64,000 nt of DNA from sequence record OK272484.1; one strand, 5' to 3'. The translations under genes were made by a program, and so were the position numbers. Of this stretch, positions 2,572 to 22,587 are shown piece after piece (positions within the stretch are counted from its first letter, which is position 1; the number at the start of each line of letters is the position of its first letter). Below the pieces are notes generated by a model that was not told the DNA's origin, searched no databases, and saw nothing but the letters and a program-made list of their open reading frames with translations. This DNA comes from Escherichia phage JLBYU22.

Positions 2572-3576
2572 TTAACTTACCAATTCAATCCAAGCCGGAC
2601 GAAGTACATCTTGTACCATTTTAACTAATTCCTTCTTAATCAAGGAAGGATTATCCGCTTGAGTTAAAGTAATACCTTCACGAGAAGTTTCTTCCAAAAT
2701 ATCTTGAACAGTTAGTCCCATCACCTTTCCAAAATCTTTTGGACCAATTTCGCCAATTTTAGAAATAACGTTATTTACCCGATTCAGTGTAACGTAGCAA
2801 GCTAAAATTCCCAGCAATTTGTTATCAGCTTCTGACAGTTCAACTTTAACTTTAATAGGCTTATCAGACTTTTTCTTTTCGCTAAATTTAGAGTTCTTGC
2901 ATTTGATAGCTACGCGATTACCATTAGGCATCCAAGAAGGATAACAAGGTTTCAATACATATCCTTCAGCAGTAAATACTTCGCCTTTTGCTTCAGCATT
3001 CCAAACGCATTTATTTGCATCAACTAATCCAGCGTGGTCTACCGTAAAATTATAATCCTGGACGACAGAATCTAAATCATTTGGCAATTTAATAAGTTCT
3101 TCAAATTTACCACGACCCAAAAGTGGAGCCATTTTAAATTTGAATGTATTACAGAATGATTCCATCATATAATCATCGACATAAGTCACATCACCACTTT
3201 CTGTAGTAACAATAATGTCAAATACATAAAAATCTTTATCACCATAATCGACATTCTTCTGAATGCCAGGTCCAGCGAATTCGCCGAAGACTTGATAAGA
3301 TACAACTGCCGAAGTTTCCATAATATCTTGTACTGCTTTAATGGAATCAGCGTAATTCTTTAGAATAATTTCATACCCAAAGAAATCTTCAGCAGGAAGA
3401 ATCGGTCCAGTACGTTTAGCACAAGTTGCTTTATCGCGTTCAATAATCAGTGAGAAATTTGTGCCATGAATCTTTTCACGAGCTACCCATTCGCCGCCAG
3501 TCAATCCTAAACTGTAAAGTTTTTCAATGAATTTAGAATTGTAATGATTTTCAAGACTGCTATACTTTTTAAACAT
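2572..3576 (-). CDS. rnlB: RNA ligase 2
   Basis: 334 aa; nucleotidyltransferase lysine motif KIHGTN near N-terminus; T4 position. Confidence 0.9.
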
Positions 3577-3585
3577 AATTAATCC

Positions 3586-3864
3586 TCAAAATGTAATTTC
3601 TAACCAATCACCATCACGTTGATCACTATTGACTTTAAAGCTAAATCCTTCTTTTCTCAGCCAATCACCAATTTCTTCAGTAATCAATTTATCGCGAGCA
3701 GTACAATAATAACTAAAATATGTTTTACCTTGTTCAGCTGCTTTATTAGCAAGTTCCGAAAAATCTTTAATAAAACACTCTAGCTTAAACTGTTTACTTT
3801 TAAGTGCTTTTTCGCGTAATTGATTAGCAAAAGATTCATTTTCATAAAGATCATACTGTTCCAT
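3586..3864 (-). CDS. Hypothetical protein (position of T4 24.2)
   Basis: 92-aa ORF in coupled minus-strand block. Confidence 0.55.
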   Translation of the reverse strand: MEQYDLYENESFANQLREKALKSKQFKLECFIKDFSELANKAAEQGKTYFSYYCTARDKLITEEIGDWLRKEGFSFKVNSDQRDGDWLEITF

Positions 3865-4066
3865 TTTTCACCTTTTTATTAATATGTCTTTTTCTATAGA
3901 CAACTTTTTCTCGAGTTTCAAATTTATTCTTAGCAGTCATAGCTCGAGCCCATAATACAGCCACTTCTTTTGCCTGTAAGTTCAATTCACGAGCAATTTC
4001 AATGAATGACTTTCCAGACTCATGAAGAGTAAACACCACAACTTCAGTTCTCATAATCAATCTCAT
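3851..4066 (-). CDS. Hypothetical protein (position of T4 24.3)
   Basis: 71-aa ORF, basic, overlaps downstream ORF start. Confidence 0.5.
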   Translation of the reverse strand: MRLIMRTEVVVFTLHESGKSFIEIARELNLQAKEVAVLWARAMTAKNKFETREKVVYRKRHINKKVKNGTV

Positions 4067-4135
4067 GTTATCGAGTTGGTGCCATTATATACATCATTTT
4101 CTGAGTGTGTTTTGTGTGCTTTCAAAATGAAGAAA

Positions 4136-4149
4136 GGGGCCGAAGCCCC
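4136..4149 (-). terminator. Hairpin terminator downstream of hoc
   Basis: GGGGC-CGAA-GCCCC hairpin; T-rich on minus strand after stem. Confidence 0.6.
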
Positions 4150-4155
4150 TTATGA

Positions 4156-5574
4156 TTATGGATAGGTATAGATTATACCAGTTTCTAAAGCAGTTTTGTG
4201 AATGATGTATCCATTACGTGATTCTTGGACATCAACTTCTGGATAGTCTTTCATCATCTTCTGAAGAGTGTAACGATGCAGGTAGTATTTACTATCTGGA
4301 TCTTCAGTTTTCCAATCTTTACCTTCTTCGGTCATTTTTTGGATTTCATCCATAACCCACCAACCACACCAGATGTAAGCTGAAGTACGATGTGGAAGAG
4401 GATGAACATAAGGTAATTCACCTTCTGGCTCTGGAGCAACTTTATCAGTTACCTGAACTTGACCTTCCGCCGTAATAGTTTTGCTATCATAATCAGCAGC
4501 AGTAACAGTTGCAGTAACTTCAATAGTTTGACTTCCAATAGATGAGGTATCAACGGTATATACATTAGTTGACCCTTCTACAGGAGAAGAATCTTTCTTC
4601 CATGAATACGCAATTTGCGCTTCTTCTGGAGCATCAGTGACATTAGCAGTAAATGTAGCCGAAGCATCTTGTTGAACGTTAATAGAAGGAGGAGTCAATG
4701 TAACCTGTGGATTCATTGTCTTCTTATTAACTGTTAATGATACTTCATTCGAAGTAACTTCCTTTTCATTGTAATTTTCAGCAGTTACTTGGGCTACGCA
4801 TTTAATTCTTTTTACTCCACTTGTAGTTGGAGTATAGTTAAATGTAGAGTTAGTTTCTCCACCAACTTGTGAATCATCTACATACCATTTATATGTAGCA
4901 GACGCTCCAACAGGTTGAGAAACCAAGGCAGCAGTAAATTGAACTGGGGTTCCAATTACTCCAGCTGAAGGACTATCAGGAGTTACTGCTAAGGTAGTTG
5001 TCTGCGTCTTTTTATTAACAGTCAGTGACACTTCATTGGAAGTAACTTCCTTTGTATCATAATCTGTCGCGGTTACTTGAGCTACACACTTAATTGTTTT
5101 AACTCCGCTTGTGTCAGGAGTGTAATTGAATGTAGCGTCAGTTGCTTCGTCTACAGGAGAACCGTCAACGTGCCATTGATACGTAGCGTTTGCACCTGAT
5201 GGCTGTGAAGCTAAGGCAGCGGTAAATTCAACAGCTGTTCCAATCACTCCAGCAGCAGGACTATCAGGAGTTACTGCCAAGGTAGTTGTCTGTGTCTTAT
5301 TTTGAACTGTGATAGTTGTACTAATTTCAGCTGTTTCAGCTTCAGAATCAGGAACTGGATTTGTTGCAACTACCTTAATAGTCTTTTGTCCAGCAGGACC
5401 TTTTAGTACATAACTAAAAGTTGCAGACGTTTCTTCCTGCGGTGCATCATCAACAGTCCAAGCATAGGTAATAGGTCCATCTCCAGTTTGACCACTGGGT
5501 GTAGCAGTAAACTGCTGAGTCTGATCTATAACTCCAGTAGGTGTTTTAGGAGTTATATCAACTGTAAAAGTCAT
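4156..5574 (-). CDS. hoc: Highly immunogenic outer capsid protein Hoc, 472 aa with four Ig-like domains plus capsid-binding C-terminus
   Basis: N- and C-terminal sequence as recalled for T4 Hoc; internal tandem Ig-like repeats; T4 Hoc is 376 aa. Confidence 0.88.
   Translation of the reverse strand: MTFTVDITPKTPTGVIDQTQQFTATPSGQTGDGPITYAWTVDDAPQEETSATFSYVLKGPAGQKTIKVVATNPVPDSEAETAEISTTITVQNKTQTTTLAVTPDSPAAGVIGTAVEFTAALASQPSGANATYQWHVDGSPVDEATDATFNYTPDTSGVKTIKCVAQVTATDYDTKEVTSNEVSLTVNKKTQTTTLAVTPDSPSAGVIGTPVQFTAALVSQPVGASATYKWYVDDSQVGGETNSTFNYTPTTSGVKRIKCVAQVTAENYNEKEVTSNEVSLTVNKKTMNPQVTLTPPSINVQQDASATFTANVTDAPEEAQIAYSWKKDSSPVEGSTNVYTVDTSSIGSQTIEVTATVTAADYDSKTITAEGQVQVTDKVAPEPEGELPYVHPLPHRTSAYIWCGWWVMDEIQKMTEEGKDWKTEDPDSKYYLHRYTLQKMMKDYPEVDVQESRNGYIIHKTALETGIIYTYP
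4723..5298 (-). repeat. Tandem duplication of a 288-bp Ig-like domain unit inside hoc (2 copies)
   Basis: Two consecutive 96-aa segments beginning KTQTTTLAVTPDSP and ending EVTSNEVSLTVNK, highly similar at protein level. Confidence 0.8.
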
Positions 5575-5583
5575 AAGTTATCC

Positions 5584-6264
5584 TTATTTTAATGTTACGA
5601 AAGAAGAATTGCGTGTTTCACGAATTAAAACTGATCCGTCACGGTTAATGTAATAAATTAAGCTAAATAAAGTTTGGTGTGCTGACGCATGCTCAAAACT
5701 AGTTGGGTGAGATTTCCAATCCGGAGTTTCAGCAATCCACTGGTAAATCCACCAAGGAACGGTGCAGAATCCTGGATTTTTTCCAATCAGCTGAAGATTC
5801 GGACTAAAGTTTTCCGGAAGAGTAAATACAGACAGCTTTTCAGATTCAATAATCTCAGCTACAGCCTGCTCGAATTTTTCTTCAACAAAAGGAGTATCTT
5901 CAATCAAAACATCGGTATTTTCAGGAATTTTATCCGTTTCTACTACTTCAATTTTAATGTCAGATTTAACCGGAGAATCAATCAGAAGTGCTGCCTCTGG
6001 ATTGACTTCTTCATCGTCATATTTTAACCCCTCTGCAGCATCAGCAGCATCAATTAAGTCTTTAATAGATAACCCATCAGTCTCTGGCATAGGTTCACTA
6101 GCGAGCTTCTGGAGGGCTTCTTCAATATCAACAACGATATTATCAAAAGATTTATTCTTTTTGACCTTTATACCAAACTGCTCAGCATATTCAGCTAATT
6201 TAGCTTTAGCTTCTTTGTTATCATCAAGAGCCTTCAGCTCTGCAATATAATCTTTATCTATCAT
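5584..6264 (-). CDS. inh: Inhibitor of prohead protease gp21
   Basis: 226 aa, same as T4 Inh; position between hoc and uvsW. Confidence 0.8.
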   Translation of the reverse strand: MIDKDYIAELKALDDNKEAKAKLAEYAEQFGIKVKKNKSFDNIVVDIEEALQKLASEPMPETDGLSIKDLIDAADAAEGLKYDDEEVNPEAALLIDSPVKSDIKIEVVETDKIPENTDVLIEDTPFVEEKFEQAVAEIIESEKLSVFTLPENFSPNLQLIGKNPGFCTVPWWIYQWIAETPDWKSHPTSFEHASAHQTLFSLIYYINRDGSVLIRETRNSSFVTLK

Positions 6265-15387: not shown

Positions 15388-16352
15388 TGTATTCTTTAGA
15401 GGAATTTAATAATCAAGCAATAAACGCAGATTTCCAACGTAATAATATGTTTAGCTGCGTTTTTGCGACAACTCCATCAACTAAAAGCTCTTCGTTGATA
15501 AGTTCAATTAGCAACTTTTCTTATAATAACTTGGGTCTAAATTCAGACTGGTTAGGATTGTCTCAAGGCGATATTAATCAGGGAATTACCACGCTAATTA
15601 CTGCTGGCACACAAAAACTGATAAGAAAATCAGGGGTTAGTAAATATCTTATTGGTGCCATGAGTCAACGTACAGTTCAAAGTTTATTGGGCTCATTTAC
15701 AGTTGGTACATATTTAATTGACTTCTTTAACATGGCATATAACTCATCTGGATTGATGATATACTCTGTAAAAATGCCAGAGAATAGATTATCTTATGAA
15801 ACTGACTGGAACTATAATTCTCCTAATATTCGTATAACCGGAAGAGAATTAGACCCTTTGGTTATTTCATTTAGAATGGATTCAGAAGCTTGTAACTATC
15901 GTGCAATGCAAGACTGGGTTAACTCTGTTCAAGACCCAGTAACTGGATTGCGTGCTTTGCCACAGGATGTCGAGGCAGATATTCAGGTTAATCTTCATGC
16001 TCGTAATGGATTACCTCATACTGCGGTGATGTTCACCGGATGCATTCCAGTGTCAGTGAGCGCTCCTGAGTTATCATATGATGGAGATAACCAAATAACT
16101 ACATTTGATGTTACTTTTGCGTATAGAGTCATGCAGGCTGGGTCGGTTGATAGACAAGCTGCGCTTGAGTGGCTTGAATCTGCTGCTATAAATGGCATTC
16201 AAAGTGTTCTCGGAAATAGTGGAGGTGTTACTGGATTATCTAATTCGCTTTCACGACTTAGTAGATTAGGAGGAACTGCTGGAAGCATTTCAAACATTAA
16301 TACTATGACGGGAATTGTCAACTCGCAAAGTAAAATATTAGGAGCAATATAA
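15387..16352 (+). CDS. 54: Baseplate tail-tube initiator gp54
   Basis: 321 aa; T4 gp54 is about 320 aa. Confidence 0.9.
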   Translation: MYSLEEFNNQAINADFQRNNMFSCVFATTPSTKSSSLISSISNFSYNNLGLNSDWLGLSQGDINQGITTLITAGTQKLIRKSGVSKYLIGAMSQRTVQSLLGSFTVGTYLIDFFNMAYNSSGLMIYSVKMPENRLSYETDWNYNSPNIRITGRELDPLVISFRMDSEACNYRAMQDWVNSVQDPVTGLRALPQDVEADIQVNLHARNGLPHTAVMFTGCIPVSVSAPELSYDGDNQITTFDVTFAYRVMQAGSVDRQAALEWLESAAINGIQSVLGNSGGVTGLSNSLSRLSRLGGTAGSISNINTMTGIVNSQSKILGAI

Positions 16353-16356
16353 CAAT

Positions 16357-16374
16357 GGGGACCGAAAGGTCCCC
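16357..16374. terminator. Bidirectional hairpin terminator between gene 54 and the convergent minus-strand block
   Basis: GGGGACC-GAAA-GGTCCCC perfect 7-bp stem, flanked by A/T tracts. Confidence 0.7.
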
Positions 16375-16380
16375 ATATTT

Positions 16381-16671
16381 TTATTTACGGAATGAAATAA
16401 AAGCAGCAACTGAAGCAACTAAACTGTCTTCAATATAAACTTCAATTTTTACCGGAGCTTCTGACTCAAATTTACCTGTTACTACACCTTGGAAAATGCT
16501 TTCAGTCTGTTCTGGCTTTGAAAAATTTTCAGAAGGAAAAATTCCGAACTTTTTATCTGTTCCAAAAATTTTGATAAATTCATCGTAAACTGCTTCATTA
16601 AAAGCATTATCAGCAGGAATAACGCCTTCAACTACAAGTTCTTGACCTAAAAAGCGCAAAGAAGATTTCAT
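16381..16671 (-). CDS. Hypothetical protein downstream of alt
   Basis: 96-aa ORF with GAGGA Shine-Dalgarno and its own early promoter. Confidence 0.6.
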   Translation of the reverse strand: MKSSLRFLGQELVVEGVIPADNAFNEAVYDEFIKIFGTDKKFGIFPSENFSKPEQTESIFQGVVTGKFESEAPVKIEVYIEDSLVASVAAFISFRK

Positions 16672-16681
16672 TTTGTGTTCC

Positions 16682-16740
16682 TCATGTTATGTCAGTAAGA
16701 TTACTATAACACAACACGAGGGACTTGTAAACTACATTTT
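16682..16740 (-). promoter_or_regulatory. Early sigma70-type promoter cassette (GTTTAC -35, 17-nt spacer, TATAGT -10) plus leader
   Basis: Minus strand GTTTACaagtccctcgtgttgtgtTATAGT; 51-bp near-identical copy at 31839..31889. Confidence 0.55.
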
Positions 16741-18789
16741 GAACTTTTTAGACATTCCGTTAATGTTAACCAAAGAAGCTAAGATTTGAGAAACTTCGTT
16801 TTCCTCTTCTTTTGATTCTTCGACAAGGAATTGATTAAATCCAGTCATTGGACGAACTTCACCAGTTTCCATCAAATGGTCGCCATCATATACTGATTCC
16901 TCTAATTGTTCAGAAGGAGGAACGATTGTACCTTCGATTAGATACTTGTTATAAGCAGTTTCTTTCATAAAGTACGTACTTACTTTATTAATCTTCAGTA
17001 AAATTCCACGTGGTAGAATAACTTCAGCTTCTGATGGAAATCCTGATAAATGACCTGGAACGATAACTTTGATTCGCTCAGCTCCTTTAATTACCATACC
17101 CACGCTAGTTTCGGCATCTTCACTAGCATATGTAGAATGACTACCCATATGCATCAAATCTTCTGCATCAACGGAACCTTCTCCTTCACCAGAAAATACT
17201 GCGCCGGAATCATCTAAGGCCATATAGTTTTTACCATGCTCACCGAAGATATTTGGTTTAAGCGATGTGGATACGAAGTTCTTGAAATAGAACATTTTGT
17301 TTTCAATGTTATGACGCAAAGTTTTAAATGTAACTTCTTGTCCACGGTAAAGTGTAGTTCCTGGAGGAAGAACTGAACCTTTAGCGAATGCAGAATCAAG
17401 CGTCTCAATATGTTTAATAGCTCGTTCCATATATTCTTCGCGGGTAGAATCTGGTTTACCCAAAAGGAACGAGTTCATTTCAACATATGAATCTGCACAA
17501 TAATCTTCAATTACATCAGATTCAGCTTGAGTTAATCCTTTTGGAGTTACTTCGGTGCTCGCGTATTCATATGCCTGAGCGGCAGATTCATTAATCAATT
17601 TATAAATGCCATTCATGACAAATTGAATAATAGCTGTCTTTTCATCTGGTGTAGCTTTAGAACCTTTAACTAAATCATTGATAATTTTCTTAATAACATC
17701 AAAGCTATTAGAAATATTAATGTCAGCAAGATCGCTTAAAATTTTATCAGTTTTATAATCAAAGAATTCTTTATTCTTTAAATATTCTTGAGAACCTTGA
17801 TATGTTATATCGCTCTGCAACTTGATAGATGGATCACGTAAACGCGCATGGGCTAATGCAATATGATTTCGGAAACTTTCTAGTTCATAATCATTAGATT
17901 TAAAACGAGAAGCACTTCTCATACCACCGATAGCTCCTTTGTTAAAGTTTGAACCAATCTGGATAACCCCGGAGTTCATTGGTCCTTCTGCTTTATATAC
18001 CGGAACTTTAGATTCAAACTCTTGATATTTCTTAGCAGCGAAGCTATCACCCTGAAGTGAAGCATCAACAGTAGAATATTGAGCTTGTGCTGCTAATCGA
18101 CGACTAATTTTAGTTTTCTGAATAACAGCTTGATCCGTGCGCTTATCATTTTCTAAGGCAATAGAAGCAGCAACAGCAACAGCTTTAGGAACAGCATTAC
18201 CTGTTTTAACGTCTACATAAACATCACCAACCTTTGATTCAACTTTTGTGAATAACTCAGTTGAAATAGGAGGTACACCTGGAATGTCTTCTAAATTGGC
18301 ATTTTTACGGTAAACCATAATATATGCATACTTTTTATCGTAATCCCAGATTTCCTTTAAAAGAGCATATCGACCTGCTCCTTTAGTACGTACTAAACGG
18401 TCAGCAATAACTTGCATTTGACGAGCTGCGCCATTTGTTTTACTCTTTAGTACGCGGAATAAGCATGCATCAATTTTATACTGTTTCATTGTTTGAAGAG
18501 CAGTATCAAAAACCGCATTAATGACACCAATTGGATTTCCACCCAAGTTTTTAAGTTTAACGAGCGATAGTTTCTCATTGACACCTATCATTACGATATG
18601 CATCATTTTATCGCCTGGCTTAACGTTTTTATTTGTATCACCGCCAGAGGTGTATGTACAAAATCTAAATCCAGGAAGCACACTTTCTTCGCCGGCTTGA
18701 ATAGCAAAAATTTGCGGTATTTTATGCTTAGGATTTAAGTTAACAACCGGCGCCGAAGCGCCGTCAAATAATTCTGTAATAAGTTCCAT
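16732..18789 (-). CDS. alt: Alt-like mono-ADP-ribosyltransferase, paralogue A (685 aa)
   Basis: N-terminus MELITELFD; ART R-S-E motifs YRGQ / FVSTSL / SEAEVILPRG. Confidence 0.85.
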   Translation of the reverse strand: MELITELFDGASAPVVNLNPKHKIPQIFAIQAGEESVLPGFRFCTYTSGGDTNKNVKPGDKMMHIVMIGVNEKLSLVKLKNLGGNPIGVINAVFDTALQTMKQYKIDACLFRVLKSKTNGAARQMQVIADRLVRTKGAGRYALLKEIWDYDKKYAYIMVYRKNANLEDIPGVPPISTELFTKVESKVGDVYVDVKTGNAVPKAVAVAASIALENDKRTDQAVIQKTKISRRLAAQAQYSTVDASLQGDSFAAKKYQEFESKVPVYKAEGPMNSGVIQIGSNFNKGAIGGMRSASRFKSNDYELESFRNHIALAHARLRDPSIKLQSDITYQGSQEYLKNKEFFDYKTDKILSDLADINISNSFDVIKKIINDLVKGSKATPDEKTAIIQFVMNGIYKLINESAAQAYEYASTEVTPKGLTQAESDVIEDYCADSYVEMNSFLLGKPDSTREEYMERAIKHIETLDSAFAKGSVLPPGTTLYRGQEVTFKTLRHNIENKMFYFKNFVSTSLKPNIFGEHGKNYMALDDSGAVFSGEGEGSVDAEDLMHMGSHSTYASEDAETSVGMVIKGAERIKVIVPGHLSGFPSEAEVILPRGILLKINKVSTYFMKETAYNKYLIEGTIVPPSEQLEESVYDGDHLMETGEVRPMTGFNQFLVEESKEEENEVSQILASLVNINGMSKKFKM

Positions 18790-18792
18790 GAT

Positions 18793-20889
18793 TTATCCTT
18801 GAACGAACTTGTAAGGCATGTTTGTAATATCTATGCAAGACGCAATAATTCCAAGAGATGATTCTACTTTTTGTTTAACATTTGATGAAACAAATGATGC
18901 AAAGTCAACTCTGTCTTCTATTTCAATATCACCTGTCATTGCAACTACTTCGCCGGTTTCCATTAAATGGTCTCCATCATAGATTACCGATTCGGTGAGC
19001 TCTTCCGTGGTCATAACTTCAGCTTGAATGAGTTTTGTATTATTAGACGTGGTTCCGTCATTATTAGAAGCATCAGTTATTTTATTAACTTTGACCATCA
19101 ATCCGCGCGGTAGAATAACTTCAGCTTCTGTTGCTATTCCGAGACTTCCTGGATATACAACATTAACTTTATGAGCTCCATCAATTGCCCATCCTATTTG
19201 AACTTTAACGTATTCAGGATTTTCTTTATACGCTCTTATTTCGTTTGGATTAATAGTTATTCCTTCTTCATTTTTATCAACTGTCAATTCATTACGAGCT
19301 TCTGGTTCTAAAAGACCAATACCAGCATGTGTAATTCCAAAACGTCCAAAAATGATAGGAGTTAAAGAAGTAGATACAAAATTTCTGAAATAGAACACTT
19401 TATTTTTAACTAGTGCTTCGTATATAGGAGCAGTCATACTTTGAGCACGATAAACTGTGATGCCTTCCGGTATGCGGTCACCATTTTCAAAAGCTGAATC
19501 TAAGTTATTTATAGCAGATTCAATTTCTTTTTCACTCATTACATCATATCGTTCTGGATTGTAACGACCTAAAAGAAGATTATTGATGTCAGTATATCCT
19601 GAACCGCAATATTCTCTAATGCCACGCTTTTGTGATGGAGTATATTTAGAACCATCGCGGGCAATAGTAATATCAATCATTGGACCAGCACCAATTCCAG
19701 AAAAACTGTAAATCATTCGTTTGAGGAATTTAGTTTTTGCTGCGTTCCAGGAATTTTTAGTTATTTCTTCCCAGACTTCATCTGGTTGTCCTTTACGATT
19801 TTTATTATGATTAGCAAGCCATTTATCTTTATAATCTTCAAAGAATTGATTTACAGCTGCTGCGTATTTCTCTAAACATTTTATTGAAGTAGTTGGTTCA
19901 TTTTTAATCGCATTAAGAATTACATCTTTAATTTTTTCAGAAACTTCATTAACCTCACTTTTTGAAAAGAATTTATAGTCATAATGAAGTTCATCTGCAG
20001 TTCCTTCGGCAATGATTTTTGCTGCTTTAGTTTTAGAAGCTAATGAATTAATTCCAAGCTTCATTTCTTCTGCTTCGGGAATTAAAGGAGCCGTAGCAGG
20101 TTTATTGAAATTAGCTGCGGTAGATTCATACTTTTGGAATAATTCACTTTCAAATCTAGAAGATTCTAATGATTGACTTTGTGCAATTGCTCTACGGGAA
20201 ATTTTAACTTTAACGATTACAGCTTGGTCAGAACGTTTATCGTTTTCTTGCGCAATAGATGCAGCAATTGCCTCATTTTTAGTTACTTGAGCTCCAGTAT
20301 CTTTATTGATATAAACATCACCGACCTTTGATTCAACTTTAGTAAAGAGCTCGGTACTAATTTCCGGAACTCCTGGAATGTCTTCTAGTGATACATTTTT
20401 GCGATGTATAAGAATATATGCATACTTTTTATCGTAATCCCAGAGTTCCTTAAGAAGGACGTATCTACCACCTGAACGACTACGGATAAGTCTATCAGCA
20501 ATAACTTGAATTTGTCGAGCTTGACCAGCGGTTTTAGACTTAAGAATACGGAGCATACAGGCATCAATTTTATACTGACGCATAGTTTGCATTGCAACAG
20601 TAAAAACTGAATTGATATAATTAATTGGGCTTGGACCAAGACCTTTTAATTTAGCAATTGAACCTTTAGCAGTTAATGTAAAAGGAACAATATGCATCAT
20701 TTTATCGCCCATCTTTAAATCGCGATTAGTATCACCTCCAGATGTATAGGTGCATAAACGAAAGCCTGGCTGTTCAATTGCATCATCAACGTGAACTGAA
20801 AAAATTTGCGGTATTTTCTTCTTTGGATTTAAGTTTGTAATCGGAAGAGTAGTATCTTCGTCAAATAATTCTGTAATAAGTTCCATCAT
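18793..20889 (-). CDS. alt: Alt-like mono-ADP-ribosyltransferase, paralogue B (698 aa)
   Basis: N-terminal 250 aa closely similar to paralogue A; motifs YRAQ / FVSTSL / TEAEVILPRG; late promoter upstream. Confidence 0.85.
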   Translation of the reverse strand: MMELITELFDEDTTLPITNLNPKKKIPQIFSVHVDDAIEQPGFRLCTYTSGGDTNRDLKMGDKMMHIVPFTLTAKGSIAKLKGLGPSPINYINSVFTVAMQTMRQYKIDACMLRILKSKTAGQARQIQVIADRLIRSRSGGRYVLLKELWDYDKKYAYILIHRKNVSLEDIPGVPEISTELFTKVESKVGDVYINKDTGAQVTKNEAIAASIAQENDKRSDQAVIVKVKISRRAIAQSQSLESSRFESELFQKYESTAANFNKPATAPLIPEAEEMKLGINSLASKTKAAKIIAEGTADELHYDYKFFSKSEVNEVSEKIKDVILNAIKNEPTTSIKCLEKYAAAVNQFFEDYKDKWLANHNKNRKGQPDEVWEEITKNSWNAAKTKFLKRMIYSFSGIGAGPMIDITIARDGSKYTPSQKRGIREYCGSGYTDINNLLLGRYNPERYDVMSEKEIESAINNLDSAFENGDRIPEGITVYRAQSMTAPIYEALVKNKVFYFRNFVSTSLTPIIFGRFGITHAGIGLLEPEARNELTVDKNEEGITINPNEIRAYKENPEYVKVQIGWAIDGAHKVNVVYPGSLGIATEAEVILPRGLMVKVNKITDASNNDGTTSNNTKLIQAEVMTTEELTESVIYDGDHLMETGEVVAMTGDIEIEDRVDFASFVSSNVKQKVESSLGIIASCIDITNMPYKFVQG

Positions 20890-20909
20890 AGCCTCTCTAG
20901 TGTTTATTC

Positions 20910-20917
20910 TATTTATA
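20910..20917 (-). promoter_or_regulatory. T4 late promoter (TATAAATA on minus strand) upstream of Alt paralogue B
   Basis: Exact reverse complement of TATAAATA, 21 nt upstream of start at 20889. Confidence 0.6.
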
Positions 20918-20922
20918 AAATT

Positions 20923-20940
20923 AAAGGCCCGAAGGCCTTT
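20923..20940 (-). terminator. Hairpin between the 62-aa ORF and the alt late promoter
   Basis: AAAGGCC-CGAA-GGCCTTT stem-loop. Confidence 0.45.
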
Positions 20941-21127
20941 AGTAATCTAGTGGTAAGAGAGTACGATATATTTCAAACTTTGGTCCTTTTTCATAGGCAT
21001 CAAATGTTTCTGTAAATTTATTATAAGCGTATGCATCTACAAATTCGAGAATGACTTGTGATACAGAAGTAGAAACATCTCCACCTTCTTTTTGAGCAAT
21101 GACAATTGTTTCTAAGTAAGCTTTCAT
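20939..21127 (-). CDS. Hypothetical small protein between ligase and alt
   Basis: 62-aa ORF overlapping ligase stop. Confidence 0.5.
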   Translation of the reverse strand: MKAYLETIVIAQKEGGDVSTSVSQVILEFVDAYAYNKFTETFDAYEKGPKFEIYRTLLPLDY

Positions 21128-22587
21128 AGACCAGTTACCTCATGAAAATCACCAAATACATCCTCGAATGTATTAGCTTTAGTTTTATCTTCACGTAAAC
21201 GAATCGCAATCGGAAGAAATAATTTAACGTAATCAGTGCGGCCATCAGATTTTAACCAACCGTTGCATTCGCACTCTAGAATTTTTCCAATATAATAATT
21301 TTGGTTTTCCATAATGCGAGTACGGTCAAGCTCATGTGATTTTACGCCGGCTTTATCTTTTAAGCCTGAACCAGCATTTACTTTAATTTTTCCACACTCT
21401 GACTCAAGAATAAATCCACCTGCTTTAGTAGGGTCTTTACGGTGAGGATAAATTCCTACAATTTTTAAATCAACATCAATTACTTCTTTAAATTTATAGA
21501 GATTTTTTGAACGGGCATTTTCCCATAACCCATCAACGTTTTTGAGAATAATACCTTCAAGACCTTGATCAATATACTTTTTGTAAATTACCTTAGCTTC
21601 ATCTAGGTTATTTACTACCTGGTTTTCAATTAAAATTACTTTATCATAGCCTGATGTCATTTGTTCTAGTTTAGAAAAACGTACATCATACTTTAAACGA
21701 AATGCAGGAAGACCATATATTTCTACTAATGGAACATAATCCCAGACCTGAAACTTCATGCATTGTGCTTCTTTTTCGGAAATGGTTCCCTTTAAAGATT
21801 TATTAGCGATTCCATTAGAAGCAGTACGTGATTCAGCTACTTCGGCGAATTCTTTAGCTTTACTAATTTCAGGATAAGCATTAAAAAGAAAATCTAGGCC
21901 TTCTGGCTCCTTTTTAACTTGCTCATGGTATACCAATTCGCCATCAATTAACACACCTTCTGGATGAATCTGGCGGGCTTCAGCGGTCATTTTAATTAAC
22001 TCTTCCTTAAGAAGATCTAATCCTAGATATTCATTACCAGCTCGTGATAAAAGACGAACATCATCTAATTCATCACCTCTGACTTCAGCAAAGCACCGAG
22101 CTCCATCAGCTTTTAACTGGGCAAAAGCTGGAAATTTGATATTCTTATTAATGCCTTTTTCATCATAAGAACTTGCAAGCATTTGAGGTTGTTCAGGAAT
22201 TAAACCTGGCCAAACTTTGTTTGCAATAGATACTGAAGCACCGCATTCAAGGTCTCGCATCATCACTCGACGCAAAACTTCAACATCATCTTTTTTACCA
22301 TCGGTGATATATCCAATTAATTCCTCAATTGCCGCATTTCCAGTCAATTTCCGAGTAGCTAACGTGAATTCAATGAAGTCAAGCATATCGGTAAGAGTCA
22401 ACATTCCAAAACTCTGGGTAGCAATACCCGGTTTAGGCCATTTCTTGATATAATACTGTAACCCACGAGAATAAGTCAGACGATATACTCGTTTAAGCAA
22501 TTCATTATCTTTGTTCTTTTCAAGAATTGCTTGCTTCTGCTTAGTTGAACCAATAGATGCTATTTCGTTCAGAATTTTAAGAATCAT
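21124..22587 (-). CDS. 30: ATP-dependent DNA ligase gp30
   Basis: 487 aa, same as T4; adenylation motif KADGARC. Confidence 0.93.
   Translation of the reverse strand: MILKILNEIASIGSTKQKQAILEKNKDNELLKRVYRLTYSRGLQYYIKKWPKPGIATQSFGMLTLTDMLDFIEFTLATRKLTGNAAIEELIGYITDGKKDDVEVLRRVMMRDLECGASVSIANKVWPGLIPEQPQMLASSYDEKGINKNIKFPAFAQLKADGARCFAEVRGDELDDVRLLSRAGNEYLGLDLLKEELIKMTAEARQIHPEGVLIDGELVYHEQVKKEPEGLDFLFNAYPEISKAKEFAEVAESRTASNGIANKSLKGTISEKEAQCMKFQVWDYVPLVEIYGLPAFRLKYDVRFSKLEQMTSGYDKVILIENQVVNNLDEAKVIYKKYIDQGLEGIILKNVDGLWENARSKNLYKFKEVIDVDLKIVGIYPHRKDPTKAGGFILESECGKIKVNAGSGLKDKAGVKSHELDRTRIMENQNYYIGKILECECNGWLKSDGRTDYVKLFLPIAIRLREDKTKANTFEDVFGDFHEVTGL

Follow-up and report, generated by a model that had tools for sequence, protein, structure and literature searches.

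The two adjacent Alt-like genes found in a 64,000-nucleotide stretch of Escherichia phage JLBYU22 (OK272484.1; the whole stretch is referred to here as the window) very probably represent a conserved tandem Alt locus of T-even phages, a reading that takes in predicted late cotranscription of the two genes, packaging and injection of both products, and differing targets. The entire window was 100% identical to Escherichia phage TH09 (Tequatrovirus). Both minus-strand ORFs named in a preliminary description of this DNA, of 685 and 698 aa, were located. Gene 30/alt.1 flanks them on one side and alt.-3/gene 54 on the other, and their strand is opposite to that of the baseplate genes; this placement matches the position of the Alt family in T4, and no Mod genes were found at the locus.

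16381..16671, minus strand: alt.-3 homologue (DUF5498), the downstream neighbor, which marks the end of the locus
16732..18789, minus strand: downstream Alt paralogue, ORF of 685 aa, orthologous to JS98 altB and represented in T4 by the remnant alt.-1/alt.-2
18772..18789, minus strand: MELITE hexapeptide of the downstream protein, identical to the six residues removed from T4 Alt
18793..20886, minus strand: upstream Alt gene, 697 aa from the second ATG (mechanical ORF 18793..20889, 698 aa)
20869..20886, minus strand: MELITE hexapeptide of the upstream protein, the same sequence as the start of T4 Alt
20939..21127, minus strand: alt.1 homologue (Pfam PF24647, "Phage blade protein"), the upstream neighbor

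For the upstream gene, the second ATG (20886) is the most likely start, which yields a protein of 697 aa that begins with MELITE as in T4, because the orthologues in T6, HY01, and ZJUN4 are annotated in that way and because the spacing of a GAGAGG sequence suits this ATG better. For Alt, T4 record X15811 carries the annotation "6 amino acids cleaved off," which refers to removal from the N terminus in maturation.

The tandem pair is already known. The preliminary description had considered that it might be a novelty, a suggestion that does not survive comparison with close relatives: T2, T6, RB3, RB5, RB6, RB7, RB9, RB10, RB18, RB68, Shfl2, and HY01 carry the same two ORFs at 94 to 99% identity. 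The record of phage JS98 already annotates the pair as altA/altB, and paralogues of this kind were mentioned in print in 2006 and 2026 (PMC1524935; PMC13600099). A recent, lineage-specific duplication new to this phage might be suggested by the single intact alt of T4, the reference genome, and it has practically no chance of being correct: it is refuted by T2, T6, the RB phages, and hundreds more, as well as by the JS98 orthologues and the two publications. The genes are thus a useful reminder and a tractable subject for experiment, not a discovery.

Both proteins have the C3/VIP2-type ADP-ribosyltransferase fold. Pfam family PF03496 (ADPrib_exo_Tox) matched the 685-aa and 698-aa proteins with scores of 71.9 and 129.1 bits (E values, 5.9e-20 and 1.7e-37), above the gathering cutoff of 23.4 bits. 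PHROG 802, "Alt-like RNA polymerase ADP-ribosyltransferase," matched residues 1 to 685 of the downstream protein (E value, 9.8e-257; profile positions 2 to 674 of 674) and residues 1 to 697 of the 698-aa protein (E value, 1.2e-273). Chance is excluded as the source of these matches for both ORFs. Each protein has three parts: ∼230 aa at the N terminus form an alpha/beta domain, a helical region of ∼180 aa occupies the middle, and the C-terminal part is an ADP-ribosyltransferase (ART) domain of the C3/VIP2/Vis-like arginine type, with R, S-T-S, and E-x-E. The complete R-S-E signature reported previously (YRGQ/YRAQ, FVSTSL, and EAEVILPRG) was recovered in both ORFs, as were the motifs MELITELFD, PGFRxCTYTSGGDTN, and KMMHIV.

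19447..19449, minus strand: catalytic Arg R480 (YRAQ) of the upstream enzyme, whose "YR" aligns with that of the catalytic Arg in CdtA and iota toxin Ia
19366..19374, minus strand: S-T-S motif (S505-T506-S507) of the upstream enzyme
19120..19128, minus strand: E-A-E (ExE, E587/E589) of the upstream enzyme, aligned with E-Y-E of CdtA
17344..17346, minus strand: catalytic Arg R482 (YRGQ) of the downstream enzyme, an invariant column, profile-aligned to the "YR" of CdtA/Ia
17263..17271, minus strand: S-T-S motif (S507-T508-S509) of the downstream enzyme
17023..17031, minus strand: E-A-E (ExE, E587/E589) of the downstream enzyme, a motif match with the ExE aligned to CdtA/iota Ia

The R and ExE positions were assigned by alignment to CdtA/iota Ia, and the S-T-S positions by motif pattern and alignment of the paralogues rather than by PDB alignment. 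The catalytic Glu of T4 Alt, to which the ExE Glu of the downstream enzyme is equivalent, is essential for activity ("E577A" mutant; PMC11404850).

T4 was confirmed to have a single intact alt. Whether it carries a second copy, a question left open in the preliminary description, was answered by a deleted, frameshifted remnant, alt.-1/alt.-2 (NP_049810 and NP_049809). The remnant arose through a 1,699-bp deletion between 8-bp repeats, which left T4 without window positions 16752 to 18450, and a frameshift.

16744..16751, plus strand: CTTTTTAG, left copy of the imperfect 8-bp direct repeat, a T4 deletion endpoint
18443..18450, plus strand: CTCTTTAG, right copy of the imperfect 8-bp direct repeat, a T4 deletion endpoint

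In the same position and orientation, alt.-1 corresponds to residues 1 to 56 of the 685-aa protein and alt.-2 to residues 62 to 117. The T4 frameshift sits after GGDTNK, where the 685-aa gene is intact, and the tail of alt.-2 is an out-of-frame reading of the last 20 nt of that gene and the spacer beyond. The alt.-1/alt.-2 PHROGs matched the 685-aa protein better than the 698-aa protein (1e-40 versus 1e-21). The T4 record describes the remnant as "an old duplication of the first part of gene alt," and these alignments show it to be what a deletion left of the full-length paralogue. In all, 401 phage records contained the 1.7-kb body of the second gene, T2, T6, and RB phages among them; the T4-type deletion junction was contiguous in 91 records, and elsewhere it was split.

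By position, the upstream gene is orthologous both to JS98 altA and to the gene for T4 Alt (NP_049811), a head-packaged NAD+--arginine ADP-ribosyltransferase. It resembles T4 Alt in length class, MELITE propeptide, R/STS/ExE motifs, and late-promoter motif. Identity between the two proteins was 71% overall and unevenly distributed: the N-terminal 246 aa differed at a single residue and identity was ∼96% over the C-terminal ∼100 aa, whereas residues ∼247 to 600, a stretch that takes in the helical middle together with most of the catalytic domain, were only 27 to 64% identical per 50-aa block. The ExE motif reads E-A-E in the upstream protein and E-M-E in T4 Alt. Relative to T4 alt, this pattern marks the upstream gene as a mosaic allele whose center has diverged, and it forms a separate allele class; 292 records carried this allele (at ≥95%), compared to 211 with the T4-type allele. 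The downstream protein was only 41% identical to T4 Alt.

The N-terminal 250 aa of the two copies had been described as near-identical. The actual value was 67% over ∼240 aa (56 to 78% per 50-aa block), and overall identity between the proteins was 42%. The helical middles were 12% identical and the ART domains 34% identical; the C-terminal tail was partly conserved, with a shared motif, YDGDHLMETGE. Both genes are under strong purifying selection, with dN/dS values of 0.034 to 0.057 for the downstream gene and 0.032 to 0.046 for the upstream gene at dS values of 0.12 to 0.25, and values were low in each domain. The downstream ORF was intact at an equal length of 685 codons in TH09, T2, T6, HY01, and ZJUN4, and all catalytic motifs were invariant.

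JS98 (Dhakavirus; EF469154) has the same gene order, alt.1, altA, altB, alt.-3, and gene 54. Past residue 240, the upstream gene is orthologous to JS98 altA (ABX11129; 48%) and the downstream gene to altB (ABX11128), the downstream protein from residue 241 to its end being 50.5% identical to AltB versus 31 to 37% to AltA-type proteins. In phylogenetic trees the middle and ART domains fell into orthologue groups with 100% bootstrap support, and in these regions each copy was 44 to 59% identical to its own orthologue in another genus. This topology places the duplication before the split of Tequatrovirus and Dhakavirus. The N-terminal domains grouped by genome, not by orthologue, and were 41 to 47% identical across genera (JS98 versus the window) compared to 64 to 67% within one genome; JS98 proteins begin with MTEQLNE/MMENLNE, and those of the window with MELITE. 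Clustering by genome despite the old duplication suggests concerted evolution of the N-terminal domains.

Further elements that bear on expression were located as follows.

20922..20941, minus strand: GC-rich hairpin resembling an intrinsic terminator, closing the alt.1/ligase transcript just ahead of the late promoter
20910..20917, minus strand: T4-type late promoter motif TATAAATA, a motif match 24 nt upstream of the ATG at 20886
19506..19513, minus strand: second TATAAATA, a motif match inside the upstream gene (codons A-I-N-N)
18796..18800, minus strand: AAGGA ribosome-binding site of the 685-aa gene, abutting the TAA stop of the upstream gene (18793-18795)
16703..16732, minus strand: T4-early-type promoter (GTTTAC, 17 nt, TATAGT) between the downstream Alt gene and the alt.-3 homologue

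A late promoter had been reported only upstream of the longer copy; the motif is indeed there, and the restriction to that site does not hold, as the second match lies 717 nt ahead of the 685-aa start on the same strand. This internal motif was also present in T6 and HY01 and was not present in ZJUN4 or T4 alt. There was no significant enrichment of the motif in the window (12 matches versus 8.9 expected), and the internal copy may have arisen by chance or may provide the downstream gene with an additional late promoter. Late coexpression of both Alt genes is plausible because the late-promoter motif precedes the first gene, only 3 nt separate its stop from the ATG of the second, and the ribosome-binding site overlaps. 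Transcriptome and proteome data place T4 alt among the late genes (PMC9697503).

[quoted passage not shown] By analogy, both genes would be transcribed together late from the motif at 20910-20917, the shared N-terminal region would load both proteins into the prohead, and the prohead protease would trim them after MELITE, as with T4 Alt. Both would then enter the host coupled to DNA injection and, with NAD+, mono-ADP-ribosylate arginines of host proteins ahead of any phage gene expression, with each enzyme modifying a different set of proteins. Different host targets are most likely because the divergence of the middle and ART domains has been kept since before the two genera split. A more specific proposal is advanced tentatively, as one that falls somewhat short of an even chance: the downstream protein, AltB, may be an additional arginine ADP-ribosyltransferase that is packaged in the virion, injected, and directed at targets of its own, with gene conversion keeping its N-terminal packaging domain matched to that of the co-resident Alt. 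A defense or toxin-antitoxin component, not RNA polymerase, was proposed as an example of its targets.

It is possible, if unlikely, that the copies instead form a redundant dosage pair, both packaged and aimed at the same targets (chiefly RNA polymerase alpha Arg265), with the second providing more dose or a backup. E-A-E in both copies predicts arginine specificity, the N-terminal domain and the conserved tail are common to both, and T4 and 90 other records do without the second copy. Yet in the middle and ART domains each copy is far more similar to its orthologue in another genus than to its neighbor, under strong purifying selection, and pure redundancy does not predict two sequence types kept for so long. 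It is quite doubtful that the downstream protein is active without being injected from the virion, acting late inside the cell or serving mainly as a structural component of the head core. A literature search found no virion proteome, or other virion proteomic evidence, and no biochemical study of this protein; the internal late-promoter motif might supply a separate transcript, and Alt has also been called a head core protein (PMC11404850). The downstream protein nevertheless has the exact MELITE propeptide that is cut from T4 Alt, and its N-terminal domain groups with the co-resident Alt rather than with its own orthologue, both of which fit a shared interaction with the head-assembly machinery of the same phage.

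Decay of the downstream copy has occurred several times independently: T4 retains a remnant, Moonvirus CF1 has the gene split into two ORFs, and Krischvirus Makalu has a truncated version. The copy is therefore dispensable in some settings. That it is a functionless duplicate heading toward the T4 state is effectively refuted: neutral decay would give dN/dS near 1 and scattered frameshifts, and the ORF is intact in ∼400 records, with dN/dS of 0.03 to 0.06 (dS, ≤0.25) and invariant motifs. The conserved tandem locus remains the preferred reading, and T4 is one of a minority of phages in which the second enzyme has been lost (91 records with its deletion junction versus 401 with the deleted segment); most T-even phages, therapeutic isolates included, therefore probably inject one host-modifying enzyme beyond the T4 model. 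What is known of the function of phage-injected ADP-ribosyltransferases comes almost entirely from T4; if AltB is injected, experiments have never addressed the effector set typical of T-even phages, because T4 deleted the gene.

Among the phage ADP-ribosyltransferases that target host transcription and translation proteins, T4 ModA and ModB share an R-S-E clade with the Alt enzymes (PMC5512222; PMC10468400). They differ from the Alt pair in being short, early expressed, and unpackaged, in lacking the N-terminal and helical domains, and in their location elsewhere in the genome. Sequence identity of the pair with the bacterial arginine-specific and C3-like toxins Vis, C3bot, Certhrax, CDTa, iota Ia, and VIP2 was 14 to 26%. 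Unlike bacterial toxins, the Alt proteins have no translocation or binding component, and their delivery would be by phage DNA ejection rather than toxin uptake.

In a comparison with other phage genomes, the region of the Alt-like gene pair (window 16300-21200) showed 100% identity with Escherichia phage TH09 (MT446387.1, genus Tequatrovirus) and 97 to 98% identity with many other T-even phages. The gene order around the pair was that of T4, with the DNA ligase gene and a 62-aa alt.1 homologue on the transcriptional upstream side and a 96-aa alt.-3 homologue (DUF5498) and baseplate gene 54 on the downstream side.

Features of the Alt locus (window coordinates)
16732-18789, minus strand: downstream Alt ORF, 685 aa (ORF list)
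18793-20889, minus strand: upstream Alt ORF, 698 aa, adjoining the 685-aa ORF (ORF list)
18076-18789 and 20173-20886: the first ~238 codons of the two copies (N-terminal domain), grouped by genome (also 3001-7215 of L006, another compared locus)
19506-19513, minus strand: second TATAAATA, within the upstream Alt gene
20910-20917, minus (coding) strand: TATAAATA late-promoter motif, 24 nt ahead of the second ATG (20886)
20939-21127, minus strand: alt.1 homologue, 62 aa, matching Pfam PF24647 "Phage blade protein" (E value, 1.9e-29)

For the upstream gene, the most likely start codon is the second ATG (20886, MELITE...), which is the start given in the T6, HY01, and ZJUN4 annotations. The 3-nt gap between the two Alt genes, with an AAGGA ribosome-binding site abutting the upstream stop codon, is an ordinary operon junction. 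A T4-early-type promoter (GTTTAC, 17 nt, TATAGT; 16703-16732) was noted at the 60-nt spacer between the downstream Alt gene and the alt.-3 homologue, and a strong bidirectional hairpin terminator (16355-16376) lies between the alt.-3 homologue and the convergent baseplate gene 54. PF24647 is a recent Pfam family, and alt.1 is annotated in T4 merely as a conserved hypothetical protein.

The preliminary description placed a late promoter only upstream of the 698-aa copy. The motif at 20910-20917 was present, with a GC-rich hairpin ahead of it, but it was not the only one, as another occurs at 19506-19513. The function of this internal motif is doubtful, because it was found in T6 and HY01 but not in ZJUN4 or T4 alt. 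As a promoter serving the downstream gene specifically, it was also rated weak, since it is the product of A-I-N-N codons and is missing from ZJUN4 and T4.

The suggestion that the tandem pair might be novel did not hold, because the arrangement is widespread, annotated, and published in T-even phages. The 4.9-kb Alt locus was covered to at least 80% in 353 phage records, and the 685-aa protein was found at an identity of at least 95% in 396. JS98, a Dhakavirus, has the same pair, named altA and altB, and both genes are present in T2. In many records both carry the RefSeq name "Alt-like RNA polymerase ADP-ribosyltransferase," and the T6 record labels the second gene "apparent insertion in alt.-2; also similar to alt." [quoted passage not shown] The original observation is thus real and its functional reading sensible, but a tandem Alt pair that is so well populated and already annotated and published is an ordinary T-even feature.

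T4 itself has one intact alt together with alt.-1 and alt.-2, which its record describes as an ancient duplicate of the initial part of alt. Alignment showed that alt.-1/alt.-2 correspond to the first ~116 codons of the T4 orthologue of the 685-aa gene, interrupted by a frameshift after GGDTNK and fused directly to the final 20 nt of that orthologue. The PHROGs of alt.-1 and alt.-2 gave a far better match with the 685-aa than with the 698-aa protein. T4 lacks 1,699 bp (window 16752-18450), flanked by the 8-bp repeat copies CTTTTTAG and CTCTTTAG; this 1.69-kb segment was present in 401 records, including T6, RB68, Shfl2, and HY01. The T4-type junction was contiguous in 91 records, and the query split exactly there in the remaining ~400. 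T4 thus shows a derived, minority state, and its alt.-1/alt.-2 are what a deletion left of a full-length gene. Decay of the downstream copy was also seen in the Moonvirus CF1 (L007, a Citrobacter phage), where it is split into two ORFs (3501-5623), and in the Krischvirus Makalu (L009), where it is truncated to 274 aa (4554-5378). Because of this decay in other genera, loss of the downstream copy is recurrent across T4-like genera, through independent events, and not peculiar to T4.

Where both copies persist, they are maintained. Across TH09, T2, T6, HY01, and ZJUN4 the lengths of both genes were exactly constant, and dN/dS was 0.034 to 0.057 for the downstream gene and 0.032 to 0.046 for the upstream gene at a dS of 0.12 to 0.25, with low values in every domain of both. 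Constant length and low dN/dS rule out the possibility that either copy is a decaying duplicate.

Both proteins passed the gathering score of Pfam PF03496 (ADP-ribosyltransferase exoenzyme; E values, 5.9e-20 for the 685-aa and 1.7e-37 for the 698-aa protein) and aligned over their whole length with PHROG 802, "Alt-like RNA polymerase ADP-ribosyltransferase" (E values, 1e-257 and 1e-274, respectively). An NCBIfam search returned no model for either protein, and the N-terminal domain matched no family in the Pfam copy searched; PF26846, a model outside that copy, appears in the precomputed Pfam annotation of all Alt homologues. The only match of the middle domain in the same Pfam copy, a sub-threshold one to CesA (E value, 0.023), was dismissed. 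The AlphaFold2 model of the 685-aa protein (mean pLDDT, 76.7; pTM, 0.65) consisted of an alpha/beta N-terminal domain (~1-225), a helical middle (~230-415), a transferase domain (~420-625), and a disordered tail.

The motifs quoted in the preliminary description were all found in the two proteins, and its claim that both are catalytically intact stands so far as sequence and model can tell, the R, STS, and ExE elements being kept. A single-sequence search of PDB sequences with the 685-aa protein gave no match; CdtA/iota toxin was reached only by a profile built from three catalytic domains, those of both window copies and T4 Alt. With this profile, the Y-R of YR[GAS]Q aligned with the catalytic-arginine YR of these toxins and the E-A-E of the Alt copies with their E-Y-E. 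Even so, the STS segment did not align to CdtA/iota toxin; FVSTSL was invariant in the catalytic-domain alignment. Mutation of the ExE glutamate in T4 Alt, published as E577A, abolished ADP-ribosylation (PMC11404850). The motif is E574-M-E576 by GenBank protein numbering (T4 alt, 3455-5503 of L001, the T4 alt region), so that E577A is probably one position out relative to GenBank T4 Alt.

Overall identity between the two copies was 42%. Their N-terminal regions, initially considered near-identical, are clearly related only, with 67% identity over 240 residues (56 to 78% per 50-residue block); the helical middle (~12%) and catalytic domain (~34%) were less similar. In simple neighbour-joining trees of few genomes, the middle and catalytic domains grouped the TH09 downstream copy with JS98 AltB and the upstream copy with T4 Alt and JS98 AltA (bootstrap, 100% for each), and the N-terminal domains clustered by genome (JS98, 100%; UP87, 100%; Tequatrovirus, 82%). 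N-terminal identity was 64 to 68% within a genome versus 41 to 47% between orthologues of different genera. The simplest reading of these trees is an old duplication before the Tequatrovirus/Dhakavirus split, followed in the N-terminal third by gene conversion or by co-evolution with a genome-specific partner.

The upstream gene is related to T4 alt as a mosaic. Its protein differs from T4 Alt at a single position within residues 1-246 and is ~96% identical to it over the final ~100; between these flanks, residues ~247-600 (window 19086-20148), which take in the helical middle and the greater part of the catalytic domain, have only 27 to 64% identity. The two allele classes occur side by side in Tequatrovirus, with this upstream allele at an identity of at least 95% in 292 records of the phage collection and the T4-type allele in 211. 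This pattern suggests that the target-facing part is exchanged like a cassette or diverges rapidly.

T4 Alt is a late product (PMC9697503) that loses six N-terminal residues (X15811 annotation). It is located in the head and passes into the cell together with the DNA; its targets for ADP-ribosylation there are one RNA polymerase alpha subunit, at Arg265, and other host proteins (PMC2988021). Both Alt genes in the window would be co-transcribed late, and both proteins would be packaged into the head via the shared N-terminal region with its MELITE site, injected, and then act in arginine mono-ADP-ribosylation. Because the middle and catalytic domains have been kept divergent for a long time, the two copies may have different target sets. 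A literature search for the second copy gave no usable virion proteomics, biochemistry, or functional work. The residual value of the locus is that this second enzyme is apparently uncharacterised and that T4 is an unrepresentative model at the Alt locus.

All aligned Alt homologues carried an invariant YDGDxLMETGE sequence (window 16867-16875 and 18958-18966) in a C-terminal tail predicted to be disordered. The literature search turned up no account of Alt being processed at its C terminus. It is possible, as speculation, that L-M-E of YDGDHLMETGE is a second prohead-protease site, trimming about 5 kDa, because it conforms to L/I-x-E, the pattern seen at T4 prohead-protease sites.
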